A stretch of 63,963 nt of DNA, filler included, from an uncultured Methanosarcinales archaeon (GTDB lineage Archaea; Nanobdellota; Nanobdellia; Woesearchaeales; CAYZNE01): NCBI GenBank assembly GCA_964405295.1. It is 10 parts of 10 records of this genome, joined end to end, with 100 filler letters (N's around TTAATTAATTAA, not from the genome) between each part and the next. Parts side by side here need not be neighbours in the genome. Positions count along the whole stretch, not along the records: positions 29,211 to 35,969 come from CAYONI010000026.1; 9 more parts are not named here. The stretch is one strand, 5' to 3'. The notes beneath the pieces are model-generated. The model was not told the DNA's origin and ran no database searches. It saw nothing but the letters and a program-made list of their open reading frames with translations. A program made the translations under genes and the position numbers. Of the stretch, positions 3,538 to 35,969 are shown in pieces. Position 1 is the first letter of the stretch; each line of letters opens with the position of its first letter.

Positions 3538-6180
3538 ATGTTTTTAGCAACAGATTTAAGTTCTTTAGTCGCGATTAACTATATTTTTTATGTCGTTTTA
3601 GGACTAGCGATTCTAGCTGGTTTAGCTCGCGGATTTAAGAAATCAATCTTCACATTAATAACAATGGCAATATTTTATATTGTCTTTTTCGTAACAATCA
3701 ATCAAGCAGTTGAATTCCTTTGGACATTTGACATGCCTTGGTTAGGAGGGGTAATGGGGAATATAGACCCTAGTTTAAGCAACTTCACAACATTTGAAGG
3801 AAGTTTAAACTCTCTAATGCAAGTCCTGATTGGGGATACGGTTGATATCTCAACTAGTTCAGCTGAGGTTATCGCTTTAGCAACCGGGTTAGTTAAGTTT
3901 GCATTAAAACTAGTTTGGACTATTGCTTACTTTACAGCTATTCTTTTAATCTATAAAATACTTTGTTGGATTTTAGGAGCTATTTTCTTAAAAACAAAGA
4001 AAGGTGCTAACAAAAATCGTGGTTTAGGCGCTGTTATCGGTACGCTAAACGGTTTAATGGCTGTTTTTGTATTACTTATCATGTTGGGCGGTTTAATGTC
4101 TGTAATGGAATCTGCTGCCTCATTACTTGAAGAAAACGAACCAGCACCATTAAGTTATGTTCAAGAAGTTAATCATTCATCTTTAGATAATCCTTTTGGA
4201 GGAGTAATACCTGTTACGTTTTTGGCAGTTGAAGATAATGATTTAGGTGAATATGCAGATGAATTAACAGAAATAGTGGATGCATATAACAAAAACATTT
4301 TTGTTATATTGGCAGATAAAATAACAACAACTTCGACATTGAATCCAGATATAGAAGTTCCATTACATATTGATTTGTTTGATAAAGTATTATCATTCGA
4401 TTACAATGAAAATTCAATTGGATTTAGATATGAATTAGCTGTATTTTCAAGCGCTGCTAAAGTTCTGTTAGATTCAGACTATTATACAACTCAAGAATTA
4501 ACTGATATTACTGGTGATGAAATAAGAGATATATTTAGTAATTTATCAGACTCAATGTTAATCACTAGTCTATTACCAGTAGCTATAGAAGTAGCTGCGG
4601 ATATGTATGAACAAGATTTACCAATATCTACAACTGAATTATATGCTATAGATTTTGAAGAAGAACTTGCTAATCTCGGTTCAATTGCTGGTGCATTGTT
4701 TGATATTCTAAATAATGCTGGTTTCATTGACGGAACTAGTTCAGGAAGTTCAGTAACAATTGATGGAGATTCAGTTAGAGATGTCTTCTCTGACATTGCA
4801 GGGTCTGAAGTTATTCTTTTGTTAACTGATAATCTCTTATTGCCGATGTTAGAAGACCAAGAAGGCGATTTAGCAACTATAATTACAGTACCCGATGATT
4901 TAGATATGGAAGTTGAATATATCGCTATTGGAGAGATATTTGCACAAATTATTGAAACGGATATTGATTTTGCTGATCTAGAAGACGCAGATGTATCAGT
5001 TCTATTAAATGCAGTTAGTCAAGTAGATTTAACTGTTTTACTAGACTCAAAAATAGTTACAGAAGCACTTATTAATATTTTAAGTGGTGATGCTGAAATA
5101 GAAGGATTAGATGTACTTGAAATTCCTACAGGTATTGTATGGAAAGATAATGGTACTGTTGATGGTGAATTAAGAAAGATATTGGTTGCACTTAACGCTT
5201 TAACTAGTGTTACTTCTGATATTGATTTTAATAACTTAGATGTTACACTTTTAACAGATATGGAATATACAGCAATTGATGAATTATTTAATTCTTATGT
5301 CATAAGGGCGACAATATCAGAAATAATAAAAGTCACTAATTTAGGCGACATTCCGCTTGTAATTCCTGATATAGTTTATGATTCTCAAGGATATTTTACA
5401 GAAATCGAATTAGTAAGTATTGTAAAAGGCTTAAAATTAATTCTTGGTTCATCTGAAGGCGTGTTTGATATTATGGAGTCATTAACTTTAACTGATGCAG
5501 AAATGAATATTCTATTATCATCTGAAGTAATCGCTGCGACACTTGGTAAAGAGATATATACCTTAGGAAGCACTTCACTTATAATACCAGCATTTGTCGT
5601 AACTACAGTAACAGTAGATTCAGTAGATGTGAGTGTTATTAATAATACTGAAATAAAGGGCATCTTAAAAGCCTTATCAATATTAGGTATGAGTAGCTTT
5701 GGTGGTAGTATTGATCCTACCATCGTAGAAGGTCTTACTAAAACTCAAATTCTGGATGAAATTTTAGTTAGTGCTACATTCCACGTTACCTTGGATGACA
5801 TGTTAAGTCAAAACCCTACTTTAGGCTTGGTTGTTCCAAATATAGGAAAGGCTATTTATTATGGCTTAGCAAGTCCAATCACGACGAAGGAAGAAGTTGC
5901 CGACCTATTAATAGGTTTTAATATCATTCTTAATGGCGGAAGTTTTACGACTACTTCATTAGATATTATTGATATCCTTAATTTACCACAAGCTCAAAGA
6001 GATATAGCGATAGACTCGCTTACAATTAGACAATTTATTACCCCTGGATTAGAACTTGAAGCTTCATTAGACCCAGGATATACATTTATTCCAGCTACTG
6101 ACTATGAAACAACAGCTTTAGCTGATCCGGATATCTTAAATTACGCAAGTTGTAAAGATGCTTTAGATTATTTCCATTAA
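3538..6180 (+). CDS. Membrane-anchored repeat protein with CvpA-like N-terminal TM region; paralogue of the upstream protein
   Basis: AAGGAGG RBS before ATG 3538. N-terminal TM helices (LAGLARGFKK, NRGLGAVIG), the same repeat type, and a C-terminus similar to the 1-3413 protein. Confidence 0.7.
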   Translation: MFLATDLSSLVAINYIFYVVLGLAILAGLARGFKKSIFTLITMAIFYIVFFVTINQAVEFLWTFDMPWLGGVMGNIDPSLSNFTTFEGSLNSLMQVLIGDTVDISTSSAEVIALATGLVKFALKLVWTIAYFTAILLIYKILCWILGAIFLKTKKGANKNRGLGAVIGTLNGLMAVFVLLIMLGGLMSVMESAASLLEENEPAPLSYVQEVNHSSLDNPFGGVIPVTFLAVEDNDLGEYADELTEIVDAYNKNIFVILADKITTTSTLNPDIEVPLHIDLFDKVLSFDYNENSIGFRYELAVFSSAAKVLLDSDYYTTQELTDITGDEIRDIFSNLSDSMLITSLLPVAIEVAADMYEQDLPISTTELYAIDFEEELANLGSIAGALFDILNNAGFIDGTSSGSSVTIDGDSVRDVFSDIAGSEVILLLTDNLLLPMLEDQEGDLATIITVPDDLDMEVEYIAIGEIFAQIIETDIDFADLEDADVSVLLNAVSQVDLTVLLDSKIVTEALINILSGDAEIEGLDVLEIPTGIVWKDNGTVDGELRKILVALNALTSVTSDIDFNNLDVTLLTDMEYTAIDELFNSYVIRATISEIIKVTNLGDIPLVIPDIVYDSQGYFTEIELVSIVKGLKLILGSSEGVFDIMESLTLTDAEMNILLSSEVIAATLGKEIYTLGSTSLIIPAFVVTTVTVDSVDVSVINNTEIKGILKALSILGMSSFGGSIDPTIVEGLTKTQILDEILVSATFHVTLDDMLSQNPTLGLVVPNIGKAIYYGLASPITTKEEVADLLIGFNIILNGGSFTTTSLDIIDILNLPQAQRDIAIDSLTIRQFITPGLELEASLDPGYTFIPATDYETTALADPDILNYASCKDALDYFH

Positions 6181-23007: not shown

Positions 23008-26000
23008 TTATTTACTTTCATCATTTAATGATTTATGCTCATCCTCAATATTTGCAAATTCAGCTGGTTTCTTTTTTAACATCCATTTTCTTAAGAATAC
23101 AAGACCCAAAACTATGACCAAAATAATTATTCCTAATACCAATAGGATCGTTCTATTATTAAATAAATCTTTTAAAAAATCCCTACCAAAAACCAGACTA
23201 ACACTTCCAGGCTCTTCTTTTATTGATTGTTTATTGTACTCTTCAATCATATGTTTACAACCATTTATTGCAATATCTAAAAGTTTTGAAGTTTCATCTT
23301 TATCTCCTTCTGCTAAACTATCTTCTGCCTGTCTTAATAATTCCACTAGCTCTTGGCATTCACCATTATTATCGAGTAGGTCCCTTGCAAAAGAAAGTTT
23401 TGTTTCAAGAGTTTCACCTTCATTTTTCTCCTCTAATGAATTAATTATTATGAGTGCACTATCCATAAATGAAGGGTCAGAAACATTTGCGTGTATTTCT
23501 AATTCATAACTTCCAGGATCCCTATAATTAATCAATGTTAAGTTAACAAATTCACTTTCTCCTACATAAATAAAATCAACAAAAGTGGAGCTTAATGAAT
23601 ACTCAACATCTCCTTCTTCAGTTTTAATACCCAATGAAACCCCATTCAACGGCCCAGTCCAATTATTCTTTAATTCAATTGGAATAATAATTGTTTGATT
23701 CTGATACATAACAACGCTTTTCGCACTAATAATCTCCAGAGGGAAAGGATCATTATCCCCCTCCAAAGGAAGACTAACTGGGTGCCTAGTTGTTCCTCCA
23801 GCAGGCTCGGTAGGACCTTGATATTTAGCAGTAACATTAACGAACACTTCATTACTATTGACGACACCACCGAAAACATCTTCTGCAGTGAAAACCATAG
23901 AACAATAGCCTTCAGTTAAACCTTTTAGATCAAGAGTATCACCTGTAATAGTAATATTTAGATAAGCATTACAACCAGAGGTATACTCATAAGTTAGATT
24001 TGAAGTTTCATCATCACCTAGCAACCAGTCTTCATTAATATCAAAATCAGGATCATAAAATCTTTGTAACCCTGAACTGAAACTTGGAAGTGTAAAATAA
24101 TCAGGTACCATTATTGAACCATCAACAGAACGGTTTCCAGTAAAATTTGGAAGTGAATTATTTAAAATAGGAAGACGATTAACATTTGTAATATTTAAGT
24201 CCCAAGTCCAATTAACTTCATTAAAAGTATCATCTACTACTTGCAATAATACTTCGTAAGAATCACTACTAAAAAAGTTAAAAGTATAATTAAGAGTATG
24301 ATTACCATCAATTAAACTGGAATCATTTATTAGCTCTCCATTAACAGTCCAATTATAATTTAGTGTTGAATCACTATCTACAGTTGTATGATTAAATATT
24401 ATCGATACATTTTCGTTTTCTACCATCATTGTTGTTCCGCCTGAAGACTGATTTGTGTTATTCCAAGCATAAATGATTTGATAATTATCACTCTCATTAC
24501 CATAAGGGTATATGCTCTCTATTTCTGGAGAACTACTTCTCAGATATATTGTAAAATTAGTATCATAGGTATCATTAACACCTAAAGAATCTGTAAGAGT
24601 GATTGTTATATTATAAGTTTTATTTGCACAATCTGCAACAAAAGTATCAATAGTTACTTCTCCTGTTAACGAATTTATTGAGAATATATCGGGGATTGTA
24701 GGAGTTATGTTAAAACTATAGGTTAAAACTTCTGTTGAACCAATTACATAAAGGTCGTCGTCATCACCAGTTACAACAACACTTGACGAATATGGTATTT
24801 GATAAAATATTCCTTCACTAGAAGCATTAGGGAAAACTATTGGCTTAGTCAATTCAGGATTGTTGTTAGTATTATTTATTGAAAAAATAAATGAATCATA
24901 AATAACAGCCCCTCTTTGGTCTTGAAGGCTTAAGTTTATTGAATAATTACCAACATCTAATTGATTGGGTATAAAATTAATTATTCCGGTTGCTTGAGTT
25001 ATATCAAAAGTAAAAGAAGAGTTTCCAAAACCATTAATTAAACTGACTGATTCTATTGAATAATTAACAAAGTCACCTCCGTCATCATCAGTTCCAGTAA
25101 CATTAAAAGAACAAGCAACATCCTCAGAACAATTAATATTGTCTAAACCATAAACAAAATATGGCACAGTATTATTAAGAACAGTTAATTCTAATACTTT
25201 AAATGCTGATAAAGGTGTTCCTGCTTGGAAATTACTGGTCCCATCATCAGTTAGGGTAATATTAAATAAATAAGTATTATCAACTAACGTATCATTAGTA
25301 CTATGAAAACCAAAGATTCCATCAGTTGAAAGATTAAAATAATCTCCAGAATAATTCATTGTATAGGTTATGTTCTCACCCTCATAAGTAAAATTGTCAA
25401 CATCACTACCGTTAATTACATACACAAAATTTGTATAAAGATAAGCATTAAGATTTGAAATGTTTTGAGAAGTACTAAAGGTATTATTTTGATGGCTACT
25501 ATTATCACTAATTACAGGATAATCATTAGTATTATTAAAAACTGCATTTATAGTTGTGGAATCAGTTGAACCAAACTGATCTTCTACATAAACAATAAAA
25601 TCTCTTTGAACAATATGTGTATTATTGAGTGCAATTATATTAATAGTTGCATTATAATGGCCAACATCATTAATAGTATAATTAATAAAATTTGAAAAGT
25701 TATCTGTAAAAACAGATTGATTTGAAGAAAAGCTCAGATTCTCTCCAACACCAACATCAATATCTGTCGCATGAAATTCTAAAATAAAAGGCTGACCTTG
25801 CACACCATTTATTTGCTGTGTTATTTGAGTTATATTCGGAGCGTGATTTGTGCTATTAATTGTTAAATTATAAACAAAAGTAGTATTAACAGTATTATTG
25901 GTTGAATCTACTGCAGTAATATTTATTGAATAATTACCAAAATCTGCAGGTGCAGCACTACCATCTGATGTATTAAAATATATTTCTTTTGTAGTTTCAT

Positions 26001-27539: not shown

Positions 27540-29110
27540 AGATTAAAGCGAACTTATTAGTAACTGCACGCTGAATACCTCGCCGAAGCTTGGTACTTAC
27601 ACGCCAGTCCTATCAAACCCATCTTCTATAGGCGTTCTCATGTCTCTTTTCTAGGTGGGTTTCGTGCTTAGATGCTTTCAGCACTTATCCCTTAAAGCGT
27701 AGCTGCTCAGCTTACCTTATCAGATAACTGATACACCAGAGGCTTCGAACCATCGTTCCTCTCGTACTAAATGGTCCTTCCCATCAGACACTGAACATTC
27801 CCAGTAGATATTAAACAAACTGCCTCACAGCGTTCTGAACCCAGCTCACGATCCCTTTTAATGGGTGAACACCCCCACCCTTGGATGCTTCTGCACATCC
27901 AGGATAGGAAGAGCCGACAGCGATGTAGCAAGCCGCGCCGTCGATATGAGCTCTCGGGCGCGACAACTCTGTTATCCCCGGAGTAACTTTTCGGTCAATG
28001 CTAGCCCCCATCAAGGAGAACTAACAGATCGCTAGACCAGTATTTCTACTTTGGATTTCCACTTATTAGAAACCCAATCAGGCCGACTTTTGCTCTTGCA
28101 CTCTACGGTGGATTTCTGACCCACCTGAGCAGACCTTTGGGCCCCACTGATATCATTTCAGTGGGGTGCCACCCCAGCCAAACTGTCCACCAATTGATGT
28201 CTTTGCATTGCAAATAAGTATCACAGAATTTGAAGAGTGGTGTTACATTGGCGTCTATATTCAAGCTGGCGCCTAAATCATAACAACTCCCACTTACACT
28301 ATACAACAAATCCCGTAACACAACAACAGGCTACAGTAAAGTTTCACGGGGTCTTCACTTCCCACTGGGAATCTCTGGCCTTTGCACCAGAATAGAAAGT
28401 TCGGAGGGTTCTAGTTAGGGACAGCGATGATCTCGTTACGCCATTCATGCAGGCCGTCATTCAAACGGCAAGGCATTTCGCTACCTTAAGAGAGTTATAG
28501 TTACCCCCGCCGTTTATCAGCCCTTCACCCCCTTGAAAGAAGGCTTAAGGTACTGACACTGGGCAGACGTCACCAACTATACACAGCTTTACAGCCTAGC
28601 AGTTGGTTATGTTTTTGTTAAACAGTCGGACCATCCTTGTAATTTCACCCTACAATCGCACCCATGCGGATACAAAAGTAGGGACCCCTTATACCGAAGG
28701 TACGGGGCCAATTTGCCGAATTCCCTTGACTAGATTATCCCTACACACCTTAGGCTTCTCACCTAGGGGCACCTGTGCCGGTTCTGGGTATGAACATTCA
28801 GAATCTATATCAATTCCTTTTTCACGGACTCAAGGCATTAGCAGAATGTACAAATGCACACTGTTCTAAGGTTTAAACAAATTCTCATCATAACAATACT
28901 CCTTTGTTTTATCCTTATTAGCATATTCGATAGAATATGTCTGCCTAGCCCAAAGTGTCAGAAATTGATCTTGCGTTGCCGCACATATCTAAATGGTACA
29001 GGAATATTAACCTGTTTCCCTTTCCCCTCACTCCAATTAGGAGCTGGGTTAGGATCAACTAACCCTCAACTGATTTGCATTGTTGAGGAACCCTTGCCCT
29101 TACGGTGATA
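27540..29110 (-). rRNA. rrl: Archaeal 23S rRNA, 3' part (5'-truncated; 3' end approximate)
   Basis: Minus strand has GGTAACTATAACTCTCTTAAGGTAGCGAAAT, GAAGACCCCGTG, GGGGATAACAGAG, sarcin-ricin loop AGTACGAGAGGAAC; archaeal-type GCTTGCTAC and G2058. Confidence 0.97.
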
Positions 29111-29210: not shown

Positions 29211-29250
29211 CCCTGTCGACCATCACCTCCGTTTAAAAAAGTGATTGGTT

Positions 29251-29314
29251 GATTAGCTGTCTCATCGGCACCGGGAGCTAATCCCCGAATGGACACCCGA
29301 AAGGGCGTTTCGAC
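29251..29314 (-). ncRNA. Type II hammerhead ribozyme with pseudoknot (core variant CCGAUGA)
   Basis: Minus strand: GUC-GAAA-CGCCC-UUUC-GGGUG-UC|-CAUUCGGGGAUUAGCUCCCGGUG-CCGAUGA-GAC-AGCUAAUC. Stems I, II and III form, and the 3' tail AGCUAAUC is complementary to GAUUAGCU at loop I. Confidence 0.8.
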
Positions 29315-29513
29315 TGTGTCCGGTGTATGTGGCGGATCTTGGCCCCCGGTCGGGCTCCCCTCTCACATTCGATTCTGTTCTCACGGCTGTCAGAGTTTCC
29401 CTTAATTGTGCGGTCCCCCCTGCTCGGATCGAATCCCCTGCTATTTGCTGAGGCTGAAATTGTTGGTCTGTCGCATCCACCATCCCCTTGACTCGTCCCT
29501 CAATTTCAACTCC

Positions 29514-29542
29514 ATTATATCATACCAATGGGGGTCTGTCAA
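29514..29542 (-). promoter_or_regulatory. Consensus sigma70 promoter driving the ribozyme-containing leader
   Basis: TTGACA-17 nt-TATAAT with extended -10 TG. Confidence 0.88.
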
Positions 29543-29661
29543 GTATTTTGTTTATAGTACACCAATTGGTACTATGTTTTGTAGTACAATACTATGCTTG
29601 CAAAATACCGTTGGTTAAACACTAATAATTTGTTCTACAATTCTACGGGTTGAACACTGGA

Positions 29662-29731
29662 AATGGCCTTGAGATATCTCAAGGCCATTCAGATATATTT
29701 GACGTACGGTCGGATATATTTGACGTACGGT
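29662..29731. repeat. 28-bp perfect palindrome plus two 19-bp direct repeats
   Basis: AATGGCCTTGAGATATCTCAAGGCCATT (29662-29689); GATATATTTGACGTACGGT at 29692-29710 and 29713-29731. Confidence 0.92.
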
Positions 29732-29853
29732 TGACATACAGTCGGCCCGAGTGGGTTAACCTGCCACTGAGTGGTATTTCACCAGTTCATTTGGTTACTC
29801 CAACACATCCTGTCGGGAACTGATCATCTGTCACTAAGTGGTATTTTGTGGTT

Positions 29854-30222
29854 TTACTTGGGGGTCGGTTCCGGTCTACTGGAAATATCCCGGTTGACAA
29901 TCCGGTCGTCTAAATCCGGCCTGACATCCAATGTGTTGAGAGCTGACAACATGCAAAACATGGCAGCTGCAAGGTGGTGTTTTTCTACCCCGTGCTTCGA
30001 TGCTGCCGGGTCCATATTTTCACCCTTCCAGTAAAATTCCTCGATGTGCCGAAGGGCTGCATCCATCAAAACACTTATTTTGAAGCCCAGTCTCCAACTC
30101 TCCTCCCAATATTTCTTGTTTCCTTCTTCGTATGCTGGTATAAGATATTTTCGCAGCAGGTCCATTGGGAGAAGTGTCATTCGGTCTTTCTTGTCTATCT
30201 CGTTGTTCTTTGGTGCTTCCAT
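29854..30222 (-). CDS. DUF5664 / dATP-dGTP diphosphohydrolase N-terminal-domain-like protein
   Basis: K.RM.LLP...G..KY...SW..G......DAALRH....W.GE..D......HHLAAA pattern. Confidence 0.75.
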   Translation of the reverse strand: MEAPKNNEIDKKDRMTLLPMDLLRKYLIPAYEEGNKKYWEESWRLGFKISVLMDAALRHIEEFYWKGENMDPAASKHGVEKHHLAAAMFCMLSALNTLDVRPDLDDRIVNRDISSRPEPTPK

Positions 30223-30662
30223 TCTTTGTTTGTCTCCTCTTGAATCTTTTCAATCCAGTATGCTTTGTTGTTTGCCTTCTCGCTTCCTATCACGAGACGA
30301 TATTTGGCAAAGTATCTCACTTTATCATCTTTCTCTTCTTCCCATAGAGCAGTATGGTCGAAGAAATACATCCAGTCGAACTCTTTATCCCATACGAGCA
30401 CCCACACTCGGCCAGCCTTTTTCCCCCTGTTGTGTATCCAGTTATATTGTTGTGGTGTCATACTTGGAAGCATTATAGTTTGAAGCTTCATTGGCCCAGT
30501 GACCTTCAGCTCAATCCAACCATGGCCAGCTGGTGTGGTGATGGTGATGTCTGGTATTCCGAGAGCAAGACCCCGTGGTTCTACTCTATCATAAGAGAGA
30601 GTTTGGATCGCCTTTAAAACAGTTTTTACCCGGTTTTTCCACATCCATGCCTCGGGTTTCAT
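30195..30662 (-). CDS. VRR-NUC-like PD-(D/E)xK nuclease / junction resolvase
   Basis: RVE...GIPD...WIELKV...PQQYNW...G.VWVLV. Confidence 0.82.
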   Translation of the reverse strand: MKPEAWMWKNRVKTVLKAIQTLSYDRVEPRGLALGIPDITITTPAGHGWIELKVTGPMKLQTIMLPSMTPQQYNWIHNRGKKAGRVWVLVWDKEFDWMYFFDHTALWEEEKDDKVRYFAKYRLVIGSEKANNKAYWIEKIQEETNKEWKHQRTTR

Positions 30663-31228
30663 ATGATGTCGTCTATATAGGTTTCAGGATCTTCTATCAG
30701 TCGGACCAGTACACCATACACAGCGTCCCAGGCACAACCTGACCAAATCCCCTTTACGGTTTCGATATATTGCTTCATATCTTTATATAGCCTATTATAG
30801 ATCGATACAGCTTGACCGTTCAGCCCTTCCTTTTTCAGATACTTCAAGGCGTCGATATAATCGGCTATTTTTACTACAGCTTTTATGTCACCAGAGATAC
30901 TAATTTCATACTTTTTCAACTTTGGGTCAACCTGTTTTTCGAGTTCATCGAACTTTTCTTTTGCCATCCGTTTTACGGGTGATACGGCGTCACCGATGAT
31001 GACCTCGGGCAGGTCGTGGATCAGAGACCACTGCAGGATATCCAGCTTGTCTTTATCGTCAAAATGTTCTTCACCAATGGCCGCTACGATGTGCAAAGAA
31101 ATCATCGCCACCATGTGGCTGTGCTCGGCCACGGTCTGTTGCCTTGAGGTATGGATGATATGCCACCGCTTCACATGTTGTGCCCGGTAAATGTCGGGCA
31201 AAGAAAGGCTTGTAATGTTAGTCAACAT
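30659..31228 (-). CDS. datZ: HD-domain dATP triphosphohydrolase
   Basis: RAQHVKRWHII, QTVAEHS, HDLPE...GDAVSP, KIAD; AAGGAG RBS before ATG 31228; next to mazZ/purZ. Confidence 0.85.
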   Translation of the reverse strand: MLTNITSLSLPDIYRAQHVKRWHIIHTSRQQTVAEHSHMVAMISLHIVAAIGEEHFDDKDKLDILQWSLIHDLPEVIIGDAVSPVKRMAKEKFDELEKQVDPKLKKYEISISGDIKAVVKIADYIDALKYLKKEGLNGQAVSIYNRLYKDMKQYIETVKGIWSGCAWDAVYGVLVRLIEDPETYIDDII

Positions 31229-31253
31229 ATATTGTTTGCTCCTTATACATATG

Positions 31254-31607
31254 TTAGTCGGCATATCCGTCGTCCTCCTGATCTTCTGGCTTGTAACCAG
31301 ATTCTACGTGGCTCATGATGCCGGTTTTAGAGTTCATGACCCACTTTCGGGCTCTGTTGATCTTCATCTTCTCACGAACAGCAGAAGCAGCGTCGATTCC
31401 CTTCAAATAAGCCAGATCCAGCACCAGAATCAAAATGTCCGCATATTCCATCGGGTCGTTTAGTTCGCTCTTTACGAGCTCCGGAATCTCTTCAAACACC
31501 AGCTTGTTGAATGTGTGTTGTGGTTCCCTGTCGGGCATCACTTTATTGGCCCAGGTAGCAATTTCTTCTTGAAGCTTTTTGATACTCGACAATTTATGTT
31601 TCTGCAT
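31254..31607 (-). CDS. mazZ: MazG-like (d)GTP diphosphohydrolase
   Basis: LQEEIATW..PDR..KL.EEI.EL...DPMEYADILIL.LDLA...KM.INRARKW, closely resembling my recollection of cyanophage S-2L MazZ. Confidence 0.87.
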   Translation of the reverse strand: MQKHKLSSIKKLQEEIATWANKVMPDREPQHTFNKLVFEEIPELVKSELNDPMEYADILILVLDLAYLKGIDAASAVREKMKINRARKWVMNSKTGIMSHVESGYKPEDQEDDGYAD

Positions 31608-31779
31608 CGGTATCCTCCTTTTGTCTCTTTTTCGCTTTATTTCTGTAATACTCCCGATTAGTACTCTTGCTGCACGATTTGCAGATCCAGTCGTACTTCT
31701 TCACTCTGCTTGGGAATATGTTGTCTTCGTCCTTTAACTTCTTTTTGCACAATCTGCAGATCTTCTCTTTGATATCCAT
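31594..31779 (-). CDS. Small basic zinc-finger protein
   Basis: CRLC...CKSC with a basic tail; G-rich RBS. Confidence 0.65.
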   Translation of the reverse strand: MDIKEKICRLCKKKLKDEDNIFPSRVKKYDWICKSCSKSTNREYYRNKAKKRQKEDTDAET

Positions 31780-31788
31780 TTTCCCCCC

Positions 31789-32859
31789 CTACGATTGTTT
31801 TACGACATCCGCACAACTCGGACCGAAGCTCATATATTTGACCGGGTTGATCTTGTCACCGTGAACTGTTCTATACATGTGGTTTATTTTCTCTTTTAGC
31901 TTTTGGGCTTCGTCGTCGTCCAGATAATCACAAAAAGAGAGCCAGATCTCGTCTGGGGCGCAAATTTCGAGAGCTTGCAACGTCTGAACATCAGAGAACG
32001 AAAAAATCCTGCGCTCCAGTTTGGTGACGGTCGTCTTCTCCGGTTTGAACCCTAAGTCCCCCCAATTAAGTTCTGTTTGATCCACATAACCCGGTCCACT
32101 GTAACCAATCATATTTCCTTCTTCGTCATATCGGTTTGCTACCCGAATCGGAAAGGTTCGCATTACACCAATAACCCTATCCACTTTTCGTGCGTTTATC
32201 AGAGTGTCAGACATAATTTGTGCGGGGGAACATTCCCGGCTAGTGCAGTACGGATAAAAACCACTATTTATTCCTAAGCTGAACCCCTGCGCCCCTTCCA
32301 CCACAATTTTATCAGAACAGTCTAAATAAGCCAGCCATTTTCGTGTATCCACTACGTCCACTTTCCTGACGTACCCTTTCAAAATTTGTTCGAGAAATTC
32401 CCTAAATTGCCCTGTTGTGATGTCAACATCCACCTGTCGGCTGAGCTTCCCTATGAGAGCAGCACCGGAACCCTTTTTTGTGCTGCCGATGCCGGTCATG
32501 GTCTTTTCTTCAGTCCTGACGTGATCCTCCTTCAAGAGAGCCGCATTCTCGTGGATAACCAGTACAGCATCTTTTACATATTCATGGCACTCCGTCAACT
32601 CTATGATCAGCCGGTCTACGTCAAGGACCGTACCGGGAGCGACCATGATGGTTTTTAGCTTTGGTGACACAATGCCATTAGCCAGAGCCCGATGTACAAA
32701 CTTTCTTCCTTCGTAATCTACAAAGGTATGTCCAGCATTCGGGCTCCATGCCGTAACCACTGTATCGGGCTCTTCCATCAAAGCCGTATACCCTGCTGCA
32801 GCACCTTTGCCAGTTGATCCGAATTGTAAATCGCAAATAATCGTTACGTTCTTTTTCAT
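31789..32859 (-). CDS. purZ: N6-succino-2-amino-2'-deoxyadenylate synthase
   Basis: Short PurA fold with DLQFGSTGKG (Ser instead of the Asp of PurA GDEGKG), PNAGHT, GSTKKG, EGAQG, YPYCTSR, RTFPIRV, TTVTKLERR; Z-pathway neighbours. Confidence 0.93.
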   Translation of the reverse strand: MKKNVTIICDLQFGSTGKGAAAGYTALMEEPDTVVTAWSPNAGHTFVDYEGRKFVHRALANGIVSPKLKTIMVAPGTVLDVDRLIIELTECHEYVKDAVLVIHENAALLKEDHVRTEEKTMTGIGSTKKGSGAALIGKLSRQVDVDITTGQFREFLEQILKGYVRKVDVVDTRKWLAYLDCSDKIVVEGAQGFSLGINSGFYPYCTSRECSPAQIMSDTLINARKVDRVIGVMRTFPIRVANRYDEEGNMIGYSGPGYVDQTELNWGDLGFKPEKTTVTKLERRIFSFSDVQTLQALEICAPDEIWLSFCDYLDDDEAQKLKEKINHMYRTVHGDKINPVKYMSFGPSCADVVKQS

Positions 32860-32860
32860 C

Positions 32861-33004
32861 CTATACCTCTCCTTTTGTGTAAAATTGTTGTGGATATTTG
32901 TTGCCTTTTAAATCGTTTTCTGCTTGTGGTATTATTCTTAGATTTGTTTCAACATTAAGCCCTGAAACTGTGTCATTCTGTAAAAGGTGATAATGGTCTA
33001 ATAA
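32861..33004 (-). pseudogene. HNH endonuclease C-terminal remnant
   Basis: LLDHYHLLQNDTVSGLNVETNLRIIPQAENDLKGNK...stop; in-frame TGA just upstream and no start codon. Confidence 0.72.
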
Positions 33005-33255
33005 GATATATCATCGTCAAATTTATTTGGGGACAGGGCATCCGCAGGACTCTGCGTCCGCTGGCCTTCTTCAATCGGCGTGACCGACAAAGAAAGGTAT
33101 TTCTCCCCGTCACCTCTCTTGTAATTGGTCCATCCGGACAGGTAGTATTCGGTCCCTTCGATGTCGATCTTTCCCATCACAGTCGGACTCTTGTCGGACT
33201 TCTTGTTGTTGTTGATGAAAAGGACTCCCCGGTTTGTGTTGTCATACTGCGGCAT
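32998..33255 (-). CDS. Conserved small phage protein (DUF736-like, possible SSB)
   Basis: YDNTNRGVLF...GKIDIEG.EY.LSGW...YLSLS, acidic tail FDDDISY. Confidence 0.7.
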   Translation of the reverse strand: MPQYDNTNRGVLFINNNKKSDKSPTVMGKIDIEGTEYYLSGWTNYKRGDGEKYLSLSVTPIEEGQRTQSPADALSPNKFDDDISY

Positions 33256-33311
33256 TCTGTTCTCCTTTCTTTTTCAGTTTATGTTTAATCTTTTCTCCAT
33301 CATCCAGAACC

Positions 33312-33340
33312 ATCCTACCACACCAGACAGCTCTTGTCAA
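33312..33340 (-). promoter_or_regulatory. Sigma70-type promoter upstream of the purZ-mazZ-datZ operon
   Basis: TTGACA-AGAGCTGTCTGGTGTGG-TAGGAT (17 nt, extended -10). Confidence 0.75.
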
Positions 33341-33351
33341 TGGGCGTTTGC

Positions 33352-35220
33352 TTAGTCATGAATCTTCTTTGTGTTTGTGGCTTCCCACCAATTTTTCCCA
33401 GGTTTGCAAAAGTCTATCCTGATTGGTATCCGGAGTTTGGGTGCCCCTGGTCTGGTTTGTACCAATTCTTGTATTTTGTTTAAGGGTGTCTTGGCTCCCT
33501 GTTTTAGCATGGATATGTTTAGTTCGTCATGGATCGATAAGAGAACGTGTGCATCAGGGCATTCAGCCTCTAAATATTCGCAGGTGTTGCAGATGTCCAA
33601 CTTTACAAGGTCGGCAGATGTTCCTTGAAAGATCAGACCGGAAGCTTTGTATGTGAACTCTCCACCGGGAAAGCGAAGATGTCTTCCCATCAAGGTCCTG
33701 ACGTAGCCTCTTGTCTTTGCAACTGATGCGGCATTTCGTGCTAACCCCCTCACGCCCGGAACTGCTTCAAAGTATCGGTCTATCACGTCCTGTGCTTCGG
33801 GTCCCGGCTTTTTAAACTCCCGTATGACACCTTTAAATTCTTTCTCTTCGACGGTGAAAGGAAGGTTCATCTTCTCGGCCAGAGCACCACCGCCCATGTT
33901 GAAGACCATGGCCAAGTTGATTTGTTTAGCATTCGCACCACCGGAGACCTTCGGGTTTCTCGGAAGACCAGTGAGAGCCGCTATCTTCCCGTGAATGTCT
34001 AAATCAGGATCTTCCCGGTAAGCTTGGGTAAGGTCGGGAGCGTTCACATAATGAGCGAAGACCCGAAATTCGTGCTGATCCAGATCGCCGTAGAACCATC
34101 TTTGTCCTTCATCAGGGAGAAATATTGGCCGAACGATGGCAGCAATGTCTTTGTCTCTGCTCGGAATTTGTTGTAAAGCTGGTCTTGTGTAGGACAATCT
34201 GCCTGTGCCGGTCCCTTCATCATTCCCACCGTGACTCGACTTTGTCTGGTTGATGGTCGGGTGCACCCGGTCGCCATGTGCATGTCCCAATATGTGGTTG
34301 TGGATAAATGTGTCACGAGTCTTCATGAGTTTCCTGCAGCGAAGAATCATGGCAGCAGCCGGATGCTGCATCTTTCGGAGTTGGTCGGCTCCAATACTCG
34401 CTTTCCCGGCCTCTGTTTCCGGAAGAAGTGTGCCATCTACAGCTTGCCATTTTCCATCCTTTCCCTTCTTCGGTTCAAAAAGTTTATGGATCGACCCTGA
34501 AGGGTTCGGATTGACCGGAAAGCCAGCCATGTCGTTGATTCCCTTTTGTGTGGACTTGATCTCTTTGGTCAGTCGGTCCGTAGTCCGTGCTGCTTCGTCC
34601 AGATCAACACGAATACCATGTCTCTCCATCCTCAGTCGGTGAGGGAAGAGTCGCATTTCGAGATCCAACACCTGTTGAAGGCCCTGTTTTGCGATCTCTT
34701 CTTCCTGCCACAAATAAAGTTCCAAAGCCACTCGGGTATCCTGCTTGGCGTACGGAGCCACCATAGACTCTGGAGCTCGGTGTAGGTTTTTCATTTGTGC
34801 CGCACGGTTCGCCTTGCCACCAAACATATCGGCTAACTTCTGGTAAATGTCCGTTAGTTTACCTTTATTTTTTCCAAGATATTTCTTTGCGAGAGCGTCC
34901 AGATTGTATTGTAACAAATGTTCATTTATTAAAGCAGCTCGGATCATGGTGCACTGCACTCTTGCTGGGTCGATGTTGATGCTTTTGTTCCAGAGCATGT
35001 GGATATCAAAGCCGATATTCTGGTTGACGATAAGAGGACATTTCGGAACTTCTTCTCTTAACCACGAGAGAACTCTATCATCTGTCCTGATATCAAAATA
35101 ATAGTCATCCGTCATTGTTGAAACGGAGATACCAAAGAGATCTTCGGTTAGCCAGTTGATGCCAGTAGTTTCGGTATCCAGAGCTATGAATGGATGTTCG
35201 CTTATTTTTGGGTAGATCAT
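33352..35220 (-). CDS. dpoZ: Family A DNA polymerase, DpoZ type
   Basis: Exo DTETTG/NIGFD/YAKQD; TGRLS; motif A DLDQHEFR, B KQINLAMVF, C IHDE; ASGLIFQGTSAD; upstream of purZ. Confidence 0.88.
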   Translation of the reverse strand: MIYPKISEHPFIALDTETTGINWLTEDLFGISVSTMTDDYYFDIRTDDRVLSWLREEVPKCPLIVNQNIGFDIHMLWNKSINIDPARVQCTMIRAALINEHLLQYNLDALAKKYLGKNKGKLTDIYQKLADMFGGKANRAAQMKNLHRAPESMVAPYAKQDTRVALELYLWQEEEIAKQGLQQVLDLEMRLFPHRLRMERHGIRVDLDEAARTTDRLTKEIKSTQKGINDMAGFPVNPNPSGSIHKLFEPKKGKDGKWQAVDGTLLPETEAGKASIGADQLRKMQHPAAAMILRCRKLMKTRDTFIHNHILGHAHGDRVHPTINQTKSSHGGNDEGTGTGRLSYTRPALQQIPSRDKDIAAIVRPIFLPDEGQRWFYGDLDQHEFRVFAHYVNAPDLTQAYREDPDLDIHGKIAALTGLPRNPKVSGGANAKQINLAMVFNMGGGALAEKMNLPFTVEEKEFKGVIREFKKPGPEAQDVIDRYFEAVPGVRGLARNAASVAKTRGYVRTLMGRHLRFPGGEFTYKASGLIFQGTSADLVKLDICNTCEYLEAECPDAHVLLSIHDELNISMLKQGAKTPLNKIQELVQTRPGAPKLRIPIRIDFCKPGKNWWEATNTKKIHD

Positions 35221-35243
35221 GGTACTCCTTTGTTATTATAATG

Positions 35244-35513
35244 TTAACACCCATCTATTATTGCAAGATTTCTTCTGTAACCACAAGATGAGCAGGTAAA
35301 CATATAGCACCCAGCTCCGTATGCTGACCCCATACTACATTCGCCTTCGTCCTGTACCTGTGTCCGTTCTAGTGAGTTTTTGAATATGATTTTTTCGTCT
35401 GTAATATATTTCTGTCCATCCAGATTATCCCATGCCCCGTTCTCTCTGCAGTCATCACAGCACGGAATAATATCAATTTTGAATAATGGACAATTACATT
35501 TCTTGCATTTCAT
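35244..35513 (-). CDS. Cys-rich small phage protein
   Basis: CKKC, CCDDC, CSSC; AGGAG RBS. Confidence 0.6.
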   Translation of the reverse strand: MKCKKCNCPLFKIDIIPCCDDCRENGAWDNLDGQKYITDEKIIFKNSLERTQVQDEGECSMGSAYGAGCYMFTCSSCGYRRNLAIIDGC

Positions 35514-35877
35514 TCCAGTTCTCCTTTCGCAGTTTCTGAACCATAAACTCTGCCAATTTTTTATCGCTTTTGACTACGAATTTCCCCTCCCAGAAGAAGT
35601 CTCGAATGTATTGTTTATTTCTTAAGTCATATTTTGGATAAAATACCCGTTTAATGTGTGGACCTATTAATTTTTCAGGTGGTTCAATTTCAATGTTATT
35701 CAGGATAAAAAATTCAGGATTTTCTATTACGTTGGAATCGGTAATCATTACTTCAAAGTAACTTGCTCCCCTTTCCATCTTTTCGATAAAGGTAAATTCA
35801 TCTTGGATAATTTTTTCCGCTTGCCTTTTTGTCAGGTGTTTTTTTATTACTACATTCACAATTGGTTTCCAGTTCAT
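35494..35877 (-). CDS. Hypothetical phage protein
   Basis: AAGGAG RBS; co-oriented and overlapping the next gene. Confidence 0.6.
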   Translation of the reverse strand: MNWKPIVNVVIKKHLTKRQAEKIIQDEFTFIEKMERGASYFEVMITDSNVIENPEFFILNNIEIEPPEKLIGPHIKRVFYPKYDLRNKQYIRDFFWEGKFVVKSDKKLAEFMVQKLRKENWNEMQEM

Positions 35878-35969
35878 TTAAGTTCTCCTTTTCTTATTTT
35901 AATAATGATTTCTACTACCAAAGGCGCCATAAACAACAGCCCAACCAGTTTTGAAAAGATGAATAACGA

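Follow-up and report, generated by a model that had tools for sequence, protein, structure and literature searches.

A type II hammerhead ribozyme with C at core position 4 on a phage contig carrying predicted Z-genome genes, and the recurrence of this variant in phages

Introduction

The hammerhead consensus treats U4 of the catalytic core as fixed. In the window analyzed here, a stretch of 63,963 nucleotides assigned to an archaeal bin, the minus strand between positions 29251 and 29314 has the look of a type II hammerhead in which that letter is C, and it lies on a contig with genes of the kind that replace adenine by 2-aminoadenine (Z) in phage DNA. The locus therefore raises the question of whether such a ribozyme is genuine, whether its C4 core is peculiar to it or to its Z-genome setting, and what it would do to the transcript that carries it. 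A preliminary description of the locus had proposed a pseudoknotted type II hammerhead with a U4C core in a Z-genome phage, and had inferred that it processes the downstream mRNA at its 5′ end.

Pseudoknotted type II hammerheads occur around prophage genes, where tandem copies cleave (PMC3088659). The U4C change lowers activity in vitro yet suffices in vivo for the infectivity of a viroid (PMC3088659, citing Ambros and Flores 1998), and tertiary contacts likely compensate for variant cores (PMC3088659). A type I Aedes construct labelled with a C4 core was made, and Aedes appears among the inactive examples in a figure legend, which does not establish whether this is the same construct (PMC3088659); the published evidence on U4C activity is mixed. 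Positions U4 and G5 form a sharp turn in the core, and G12 and G8 act in general base-acid catalysis (PMC11300833). The biological role of prokaryotic and phage hammerheads has been called an open question (PMC6155905).

Results

Identity of the ribozyme

The minus strand at 29251 to 29314 combines three stems, a GUC site, a CCGAUGA core and complementarity between loop and tail, which together make up the type II hammerhead signature (Table 1). Its architecture is that of RF02276 (Hammerhead_II), a junction of three stems of which I and III end in loops and II is open, and C3, G5, A6, G8, A9, G12, A13, A14, the A15.1-U16.1 pair and H17 are all as expected for that family; the consensus U at position 4 is replaced by C (29267). 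The Hammerhead_II search suggested in the preliminary description returned a match over the full length of the model (positions 1 to 66, E-value threshold, E = 1.2 × 10−5) whose 35.9 bits lie 1.1 bits below the gathering score of 37, and with Rfam applied at the gathering threshold the window contained no hammerhead match. The ribozyme letters are identical in contigs of two marine runs, X1 (a possible source of this DNA) and X2 (from another study), which cover 29211 to 31200, and in a metagenome contig (L522); because all of these show the same letter, C4 is not an assembly error. A third run, X3, has no coverage of the ribozyme.

Plain minimum-free-energy folding against shuffled sequences was uninformative (z = −0.46). 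The count of pattern matches within the window (1 found, 0.01 expected) was discarded as support because the pattern had been derived from this very copy, which makes the count circular. Its stems, core, GUC and sub-threshold RF02276 match identify the element as a genuine type II hammerhead, a known kind of ribozyme that departs from the consensus at core position 4, as the preliminary description had it, and the predicted cut between 29292 and 29291 falls at the GUC where that description placed it, read on the minus strand.

Table 1. Coordinates (window positions) of the ribozyme, its flanks and the phage genes
Feature	Position	Strand	Evidence or remark
Whole type II hammerhead	29251-29314	minus	RF02276, 35.9 bits, E = 1.2e-5
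Stem II	GUC 29314-29312 with GAC 29261-29259	minus	read from sequence
G12-A13-A14	29311-29309	minus	read from sequence
Stem III hairpin	29308-29293	minus	6 pairs including one G.U, loop UUUC
C17 of GUC	29292	minus	predicted scissile bond 29292/29291, hammerhead consensus
Stem I	29291-29269	minus	7 pairs, bulged U at 29288
Stem I loop, 8 nt	29283-29276	minus	complementary to 3′ tail
Core C3-C4-G5-A6-U7-G8-A9 (CCGAUGA)	29268-29262	minus	C4 at 29267
3′ tail, pseudoknot strand	29251-29258	minus	8 nt complementary to stem I loop
Predicted hairpin with GGAGGTG (29230-29224) and ATG (29223-29221)	29219-29249	minus	ATG opens 8 codons
Competing strand, 6 nt	29316-29321	minus	predicted pairing with 29296-29291
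Leader, ~190 nt	29315-29507	minus	no stable fold, no relatives found
Sigma-70-type promoter	29514-29542	minus	12/12 consensus, 17-nt spacer, extended TG
DatZ-like dATP triphosphohydrolase	30659-31264	minus	phrog_7076, E = 4.6e-31
MazZ-like dATP/dGTP pyrophosphohydrolase	31254-31607	minus	PF04447, phrog_801
PurZ	31789-32859	minus	phrog_1211, E = 2.3e-81
Family A DNA polymerase, DpoZ-like	33352-35220	minus	PDB 7pbk, E = 9.6e-139; Klenow, E = 2e-38

Frequency of C4 and covariation

Next, we looked into how often C occupies position 4 in related ribozymes. A scan of IMG/VR with the stem II of the present copy and a C4 core gave at least 120 loci, with 122 matches listed, 113 of which had both variable stems and represented 68 distinct sequences in 18 clusters. 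Because 47 of these 68 sequences (among the matches listed) belong to a single gut-phage cluster, kinship inflates the C4 counts. The U4 version of the scan yielded 148 structured matches among the 150 listed, in 94 clusters. When any base was allowed at position 4, the 145 sampled IMG/VR matches contained U (113) and C (32) and neither A nor G; counted by cluster in this unbiased sample, C4 occurred in 3 of 59, each time mixed with U4.

Control scans, complete over IMG/VR, returned 15 loci with a changed G5, 3 of them structured and all G5A, and 5 loci with A4 or G4, none of them structured; C4 under the same control pattern gave at least 110 structured matches in 108 loci. Since C4 and G5A are both transitions and C4 is far the more frequent, C at position 4 is likely tolerated by selection rather than a product of decay, kinship inflating its count. 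Both U4 and C4 were found on four otherwise identical stem I and loop sequences, so C4 does not need a fixed compensating letter. The survey of GTDB genomes found 63 loci, of which 13 passed the stem filter and about 11 were convincing (Lachnospiraceae, Streptomyces, Polyangiaceae and others); two loci that passed the filter (L538 and L556) look like chance and were set aside. A looser IMG/VR scan was mostly chance, with 3 of 121 loci past a weak filter and 1 convincing. Several phage contigs (L292, L294, L296 and L297) carry three type II hammerheads within about 1 to 1.5 kb, with more in adjacent loci on these contigs.

The pseudoknot lay outside every selection filter, and we evaluated it on the representatives of the 18 C4 clusters (among the matches listed) together with the present copy. 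At least 5 pairs formed in 10 of 19 pairings of a loop with its own tail, against 21 of 342 crossed pairings. The present loop can pair over 8 nt with the tail of its own ribozyme, against 2 to 3 nt with those of the 18 others, and relative to a sister hammerhead on contig C35 (described below) it shows a compensatory change in loop and tail. The covariation among homologues on which the preliminary description had staked its reading is thus present. That description had also given the pseudoknot as 8 nt: the 8 complementary letters are there, but they fill the entire loop, so that on H-type geometry a pseudoknot of 6 to 7 pairs is likelier. Stems I and III pair in 18 to 19 of the 19 copies, partly by construction through the stem filter; a MAFFT alignment misaligned stem I, and pairs were counted by script instead. 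The A after stem II that marks the pseudoknot type occurs in 15 of 18 C4 clusters and 46 of 94 U4 clusters among the matches listed (P value = 0.009, uncorrected, the clusters being not fully independent). In three of the 18 C4 clusters (L191, L207 and L217), C4 stands in a short-loop type II subclass with no obvious pseudoknot.

The phage contig and its Z-genome genes

The ribozyme lies on contig C26 (window 29211 to 35969), which has 45% GC compared with about 30% for the large contigs. It is phage DNA in an archaeal bin, whose minus strand encodes a family A polymerase, SSB, PurZ, MazZ-like and DatZ-like proteins and one further dATP/dGTP hydrolase domain; we infer a bacterial host and mis-binning. 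The PurZ product matched PDB 6fm1 (E = 2 × 10−77) and 7odx (labelled PurZ, E = 1 × 10−65) far above other adenylosuccinate synthetases, and it carries Ser in the GSTGKG motif. Serine in the PurZ clade replaces the catalytic Asp of PurA. The structure that the polymerase matches far above Klenow, PDB 7pbk, is the DpoZ of phiVC8. The contig thus clusters the genes by which a Z phage is recognized, namely, a PurZ-clade synthetase with Ser, DatZ-like and MazZ-like enzymes and a DpoZ-like polymerase, as the preliminary description had supposed, and this gene content suggests that the phage DNA contains Z.

The gene cluster is syntenic with that of SH-Ab 15497 and PMBT28, and the nearest cultured phages are Acinetobacter phages like SH-Ab 15497 and Salmonella phage PMBT28 (PurZ identity, 48 to 49%). 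Contigs C23, C26 and C35 match consecutive parts of these genomes and appear to be fragments of a single PurZ phage of this type, in whose early region consensus promoters recur and cassettes of small genes can be exchanged. A PurZ-based search of IMG/VR for related loci gave 15 pattern matches, none confirmed. The neighboring contig in the window holds a partial archaeal LSU rRNA (27550 to 29107, minus strand), unrelated to the phage contig.

We also evaluated whether C4 could be an adaptation to a Z genome, for which the presence of ribozyme, PurZ, DatZ and a MazZ-like gene on one contig would speak. Among 31 viral records with a C4 ribozyme (one for each of the 18 clusters and 13 others, out of at least 120 loci), PurZ was found in none, nor in any of the 19 near-complete ones, by a search that detected it in both of two known Z phages used as positive controls. 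Conversely, RF02276 was found in none of five cultured PurZ phages, and the sister hammerhead of what is apparently the same phage has the canonical U4. RNA is in any case expected to contain ordinary A. We therefore give this explanation almost no credence: C4 recurs in many phages without Z genes and is a common variant with no Z-genome specialty, and the Z-genome setting adds nothing to the mechanism. Neither feature that had made the locus seem special has held up, since C4 is widespread in phages and U4C had already been described in a viroid (PMC3088659).

The cultured PurZ phage SH-Ab 15497 (L589) carries an unannotated type I-like hammerhead with a canonical core (24828 to 24875, plus strand), directly past a TATAAT box and with an Rfam HH9 score of only 21.6 bits; about 180 nt beyond it lies an unannotated tRNA (25057 to 25130, 71 bits).

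Transcript context

The promoter about 200 nt upstream of the ribozyme, noted in the preliminary description, is the sole perfect-consensus site on C26, and its position suggests that transcription starts near 29507. We considered the leader as a structured noncoding RNA and rejected this, as it folded no better than expected (z = +0.9 to +1.1), had no other Rfam match and lacked relatives both in the bin and in the set of fetched loci. A doubtful open reading frame of 73 codons (29483 to 29262, minus strand) overlaps the leader and ends with its stop codon on U7-G8-A9 of the core; it has no Pfam match, and its Shine-Dalgarno (SD) sequence is poorly spaced. The leader strand next to stem II is predicted to pair with the nucleotides around the cut, which would sequester the scissile bond in an alternative, inactive structure (−23.9 kcal/mol, against −16.5 kcal/mol for the active fold without its pseudoknot; the isolated pseudoknot duplex is predicted to be worth −4.8 to −8.7 kcal/mol). 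Upstream of the promoter lie a perfect 28-bp palindrome (29662 to 29689) and, adjoining it, two direct repeats of 19 nt placed 21 nt apart (29692 to 29731); these could be terminator, operator or origin elements.

On the other side, the GGAGGTG starts 20 nt past the ribozyme tail, confirming the SD sequence of the preliminary description, with an ATG 2 nt after GGAGG. Contig C26 ends at 29211, before any downstream gene. A metagenome scan gave two contigs, L521 and L522. The latter equals C26 at 99.98% and adds 328 nt. There the ATG frame closes after 8 codons, and about 220 nt beyond the cut, in AT-rich DNA, begins the first gene that has a normal SD. Contig L521 starts within a variant of the ribozyme module of about 120 nt; the variant has three differences, one of which, a C-to-U change in stem I, keeps the pair as U.G, and its ATG likewise opens 8 codons. 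A second consensus promoter follows about 95 nt past the SD, after which L521 continues as C35, and in a further contig (L586) this second promoter is joined to other small genes. Since L521, L522 and L586 differ downstream, the early region either contains repeats or varies among strains, in keeping with the break at the end of C26; the modules of L521 and C26 may be either two copies or strain alleles.

Contig C35 carries the sister type II hammerhead (4385 to 4450, minus strand; L122), which has a CUGAUGA core, lies between a gene of 278 aa and a DUF932 gene and scores 38.4 bits, above the Rfam cutoff of 37. Its position 9 is A in C35 and L586 and G in L521.

Among the matches listed, an SD sequence and an open reading frame of at least 30 codons start 22 to 49 nt past A9 in 17 of 18 C4 clusters, and an upstream frame ends within 10 nt of stem II in 12 of 18. 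By these contexts, the C4 family would normally cut the RNA between neighboring genes, just ahead of an SD sequence. The present copy is atypical, with no upstream gene ending at the ribozyme and no real gene after the SD. The proposed processing of the 5′ end of a downstream mRNA thus agrees with 17 of 18 clusters of the family but is weak at this locus, where the frame following the SD has 8 codons.

Discussion

We put at about two in three (0.68) the probability that the element is a recurrent phage type, a C4 pseudoknotted type II hammerhead, likely able to cleave the RNA that carries it after C17, and probably more slowly than its U4 counterparts. Several points weigh against this reading: a score under the Rfam cutoff that the U4 sister passes, the predicted inactive fold of about equal energy, C4 counts inflated by kinship (3 of 59 clusters in the unbiased sample), the Aedes examples and the atypical gene context. 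Extending the observed sequence, fold signature, covariation, family frequency and context to transcription, cleavage, rate and purpose, we propose that a host sigma-70 polymerase would start near 29507 and that the ribozyme would reach its fold when the loop of stem I is bound by the 3′ tail. Cleavage between 29292 and 29291 would use G12 as the base and G8 as the acid, as in all hammerheads; position 4, at the sharp U4/G5 turn, supplies none of the catalytic groups, and its change is likely compensated by the pseudoknot. The 5′ product would be a leader of about 215 nt, and the 3′ product would begin with a 5′-OH at a structured terminus, made of a hairpin and the pseudoknot, that likely sets the stability of this RNA. 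As the adjacent frame has only 8 codons, a long leader would precede a variable cassette of early genes in the processed RNA.

An alternative, which we consider unlikely, is that the hammerhead is decaying or silent, its partner gene having been lost in a rearranging early region, with U4C near-neutral and the upstream helix causing misfolding. The 8-codon frame after the SD, the different downstream sequences of L521 and L522, the predicted competing fold and the exchange of U4 and C4 on four otherwise identical stem I and loop sequences would all suit this, as would the G at position 9 of the sister in L521, from which it follows that core changes do arise in this population. The remaining core positions, the three stems and the pseudoknot are nevertheless all intact, the L521 variant alters stem I by a change that keeps the pair, and C4 exceeds G5A, a change that arises just as easily, by at least 110 matches to 3 (in clusters or loci, by at least 15 to 3).

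The ribozyme could also be slow or switchable by design, the C4 core and the upstream helix leaving it to a ribosome on the leader frame or to a phage protein to decide whether the cut is made. The active and inactive folds are close in predicted energy, the leader frame has its stop codon within the core, and PMC3088659 suggests that certain conditions or signals may switch on phage variants that cleave slowly. We consider this very unlikely given a leader that lacks a stable fold and homologues among the fetched loci and in the bin, a leader frame that lacks a Pfam match and a well-spaced SD, and a competing helix known from the present copy alone. The broader proposal that position 4 is under selection for pyrimidines only, that C4 defines a rate-tuned subclass, and that core, helix and frame here form a regulated early-transcript switch instead of a constitutive processor is likewise very unlikely.

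The ribozyme resembles the bacterial and prophage type II hammerheads of PMC3088659 (Perreault et al. 2011) and RF02276 in its short, open stem II, its hairpin stems I and III, its tail-loop pseudoknot, its GUC and its intergenic place before an SD; it differs from them in C4, in a promoter-proximal leader of about 190 nt and in having no real gene after the SD. The natural U4C hammerhead of a viroid (PMC3088659) has the same substitution but belongs to a viroid RNA replicon, whereas the present one belongs to a DNA phage, and unlike that viroid case, C4 is found again and again among phage type II ribozymes, in at least 18 clusters. The HHphage element of haloviruses HF1 and HF2, likewise a viral variant-core hammerhead from an early region, carries its insertion near C3 in place of U4C and lies 13 nt before the start codon of a helicase; mapping put the 5′ end of its transcript no more than 3 nt from the cut (PMC3088659). 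The PK hammerhead of PDB 8YDC (Zhan et al. 2024, PMC11300833) shares the C3-A9 turn, the G12/G8 chemistry and a pseudoknot but has a Pistol-like topology, with the pseudoknot in place of helix II.

In a search of the open literature, no description of a C4 subclass in phages came up; “U4C” together with “hammerhead” led to PMC3088659 only, and PMC11014351 had no match to U4C terms. The C4 variant has thus been published for a viroid and is widespread yet apparently undescribed in phages, although phage C4 sequences may already be within the Dataset S1 alignment of PMC3088659.

If C4 pseudoknotted ribozymes cleave, searches with the consensus and Rfam thresholds would miss a sizeable subclass in phages, which in one IMG/VR sample amounted to 32 of 145 matches and 3 of 59 clusters. 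Moreover, the U4 and C4 pairs that are otherwise identical, including two sisters in apparently one phage, would offer a natural test of rate tuning in these ribozymes.
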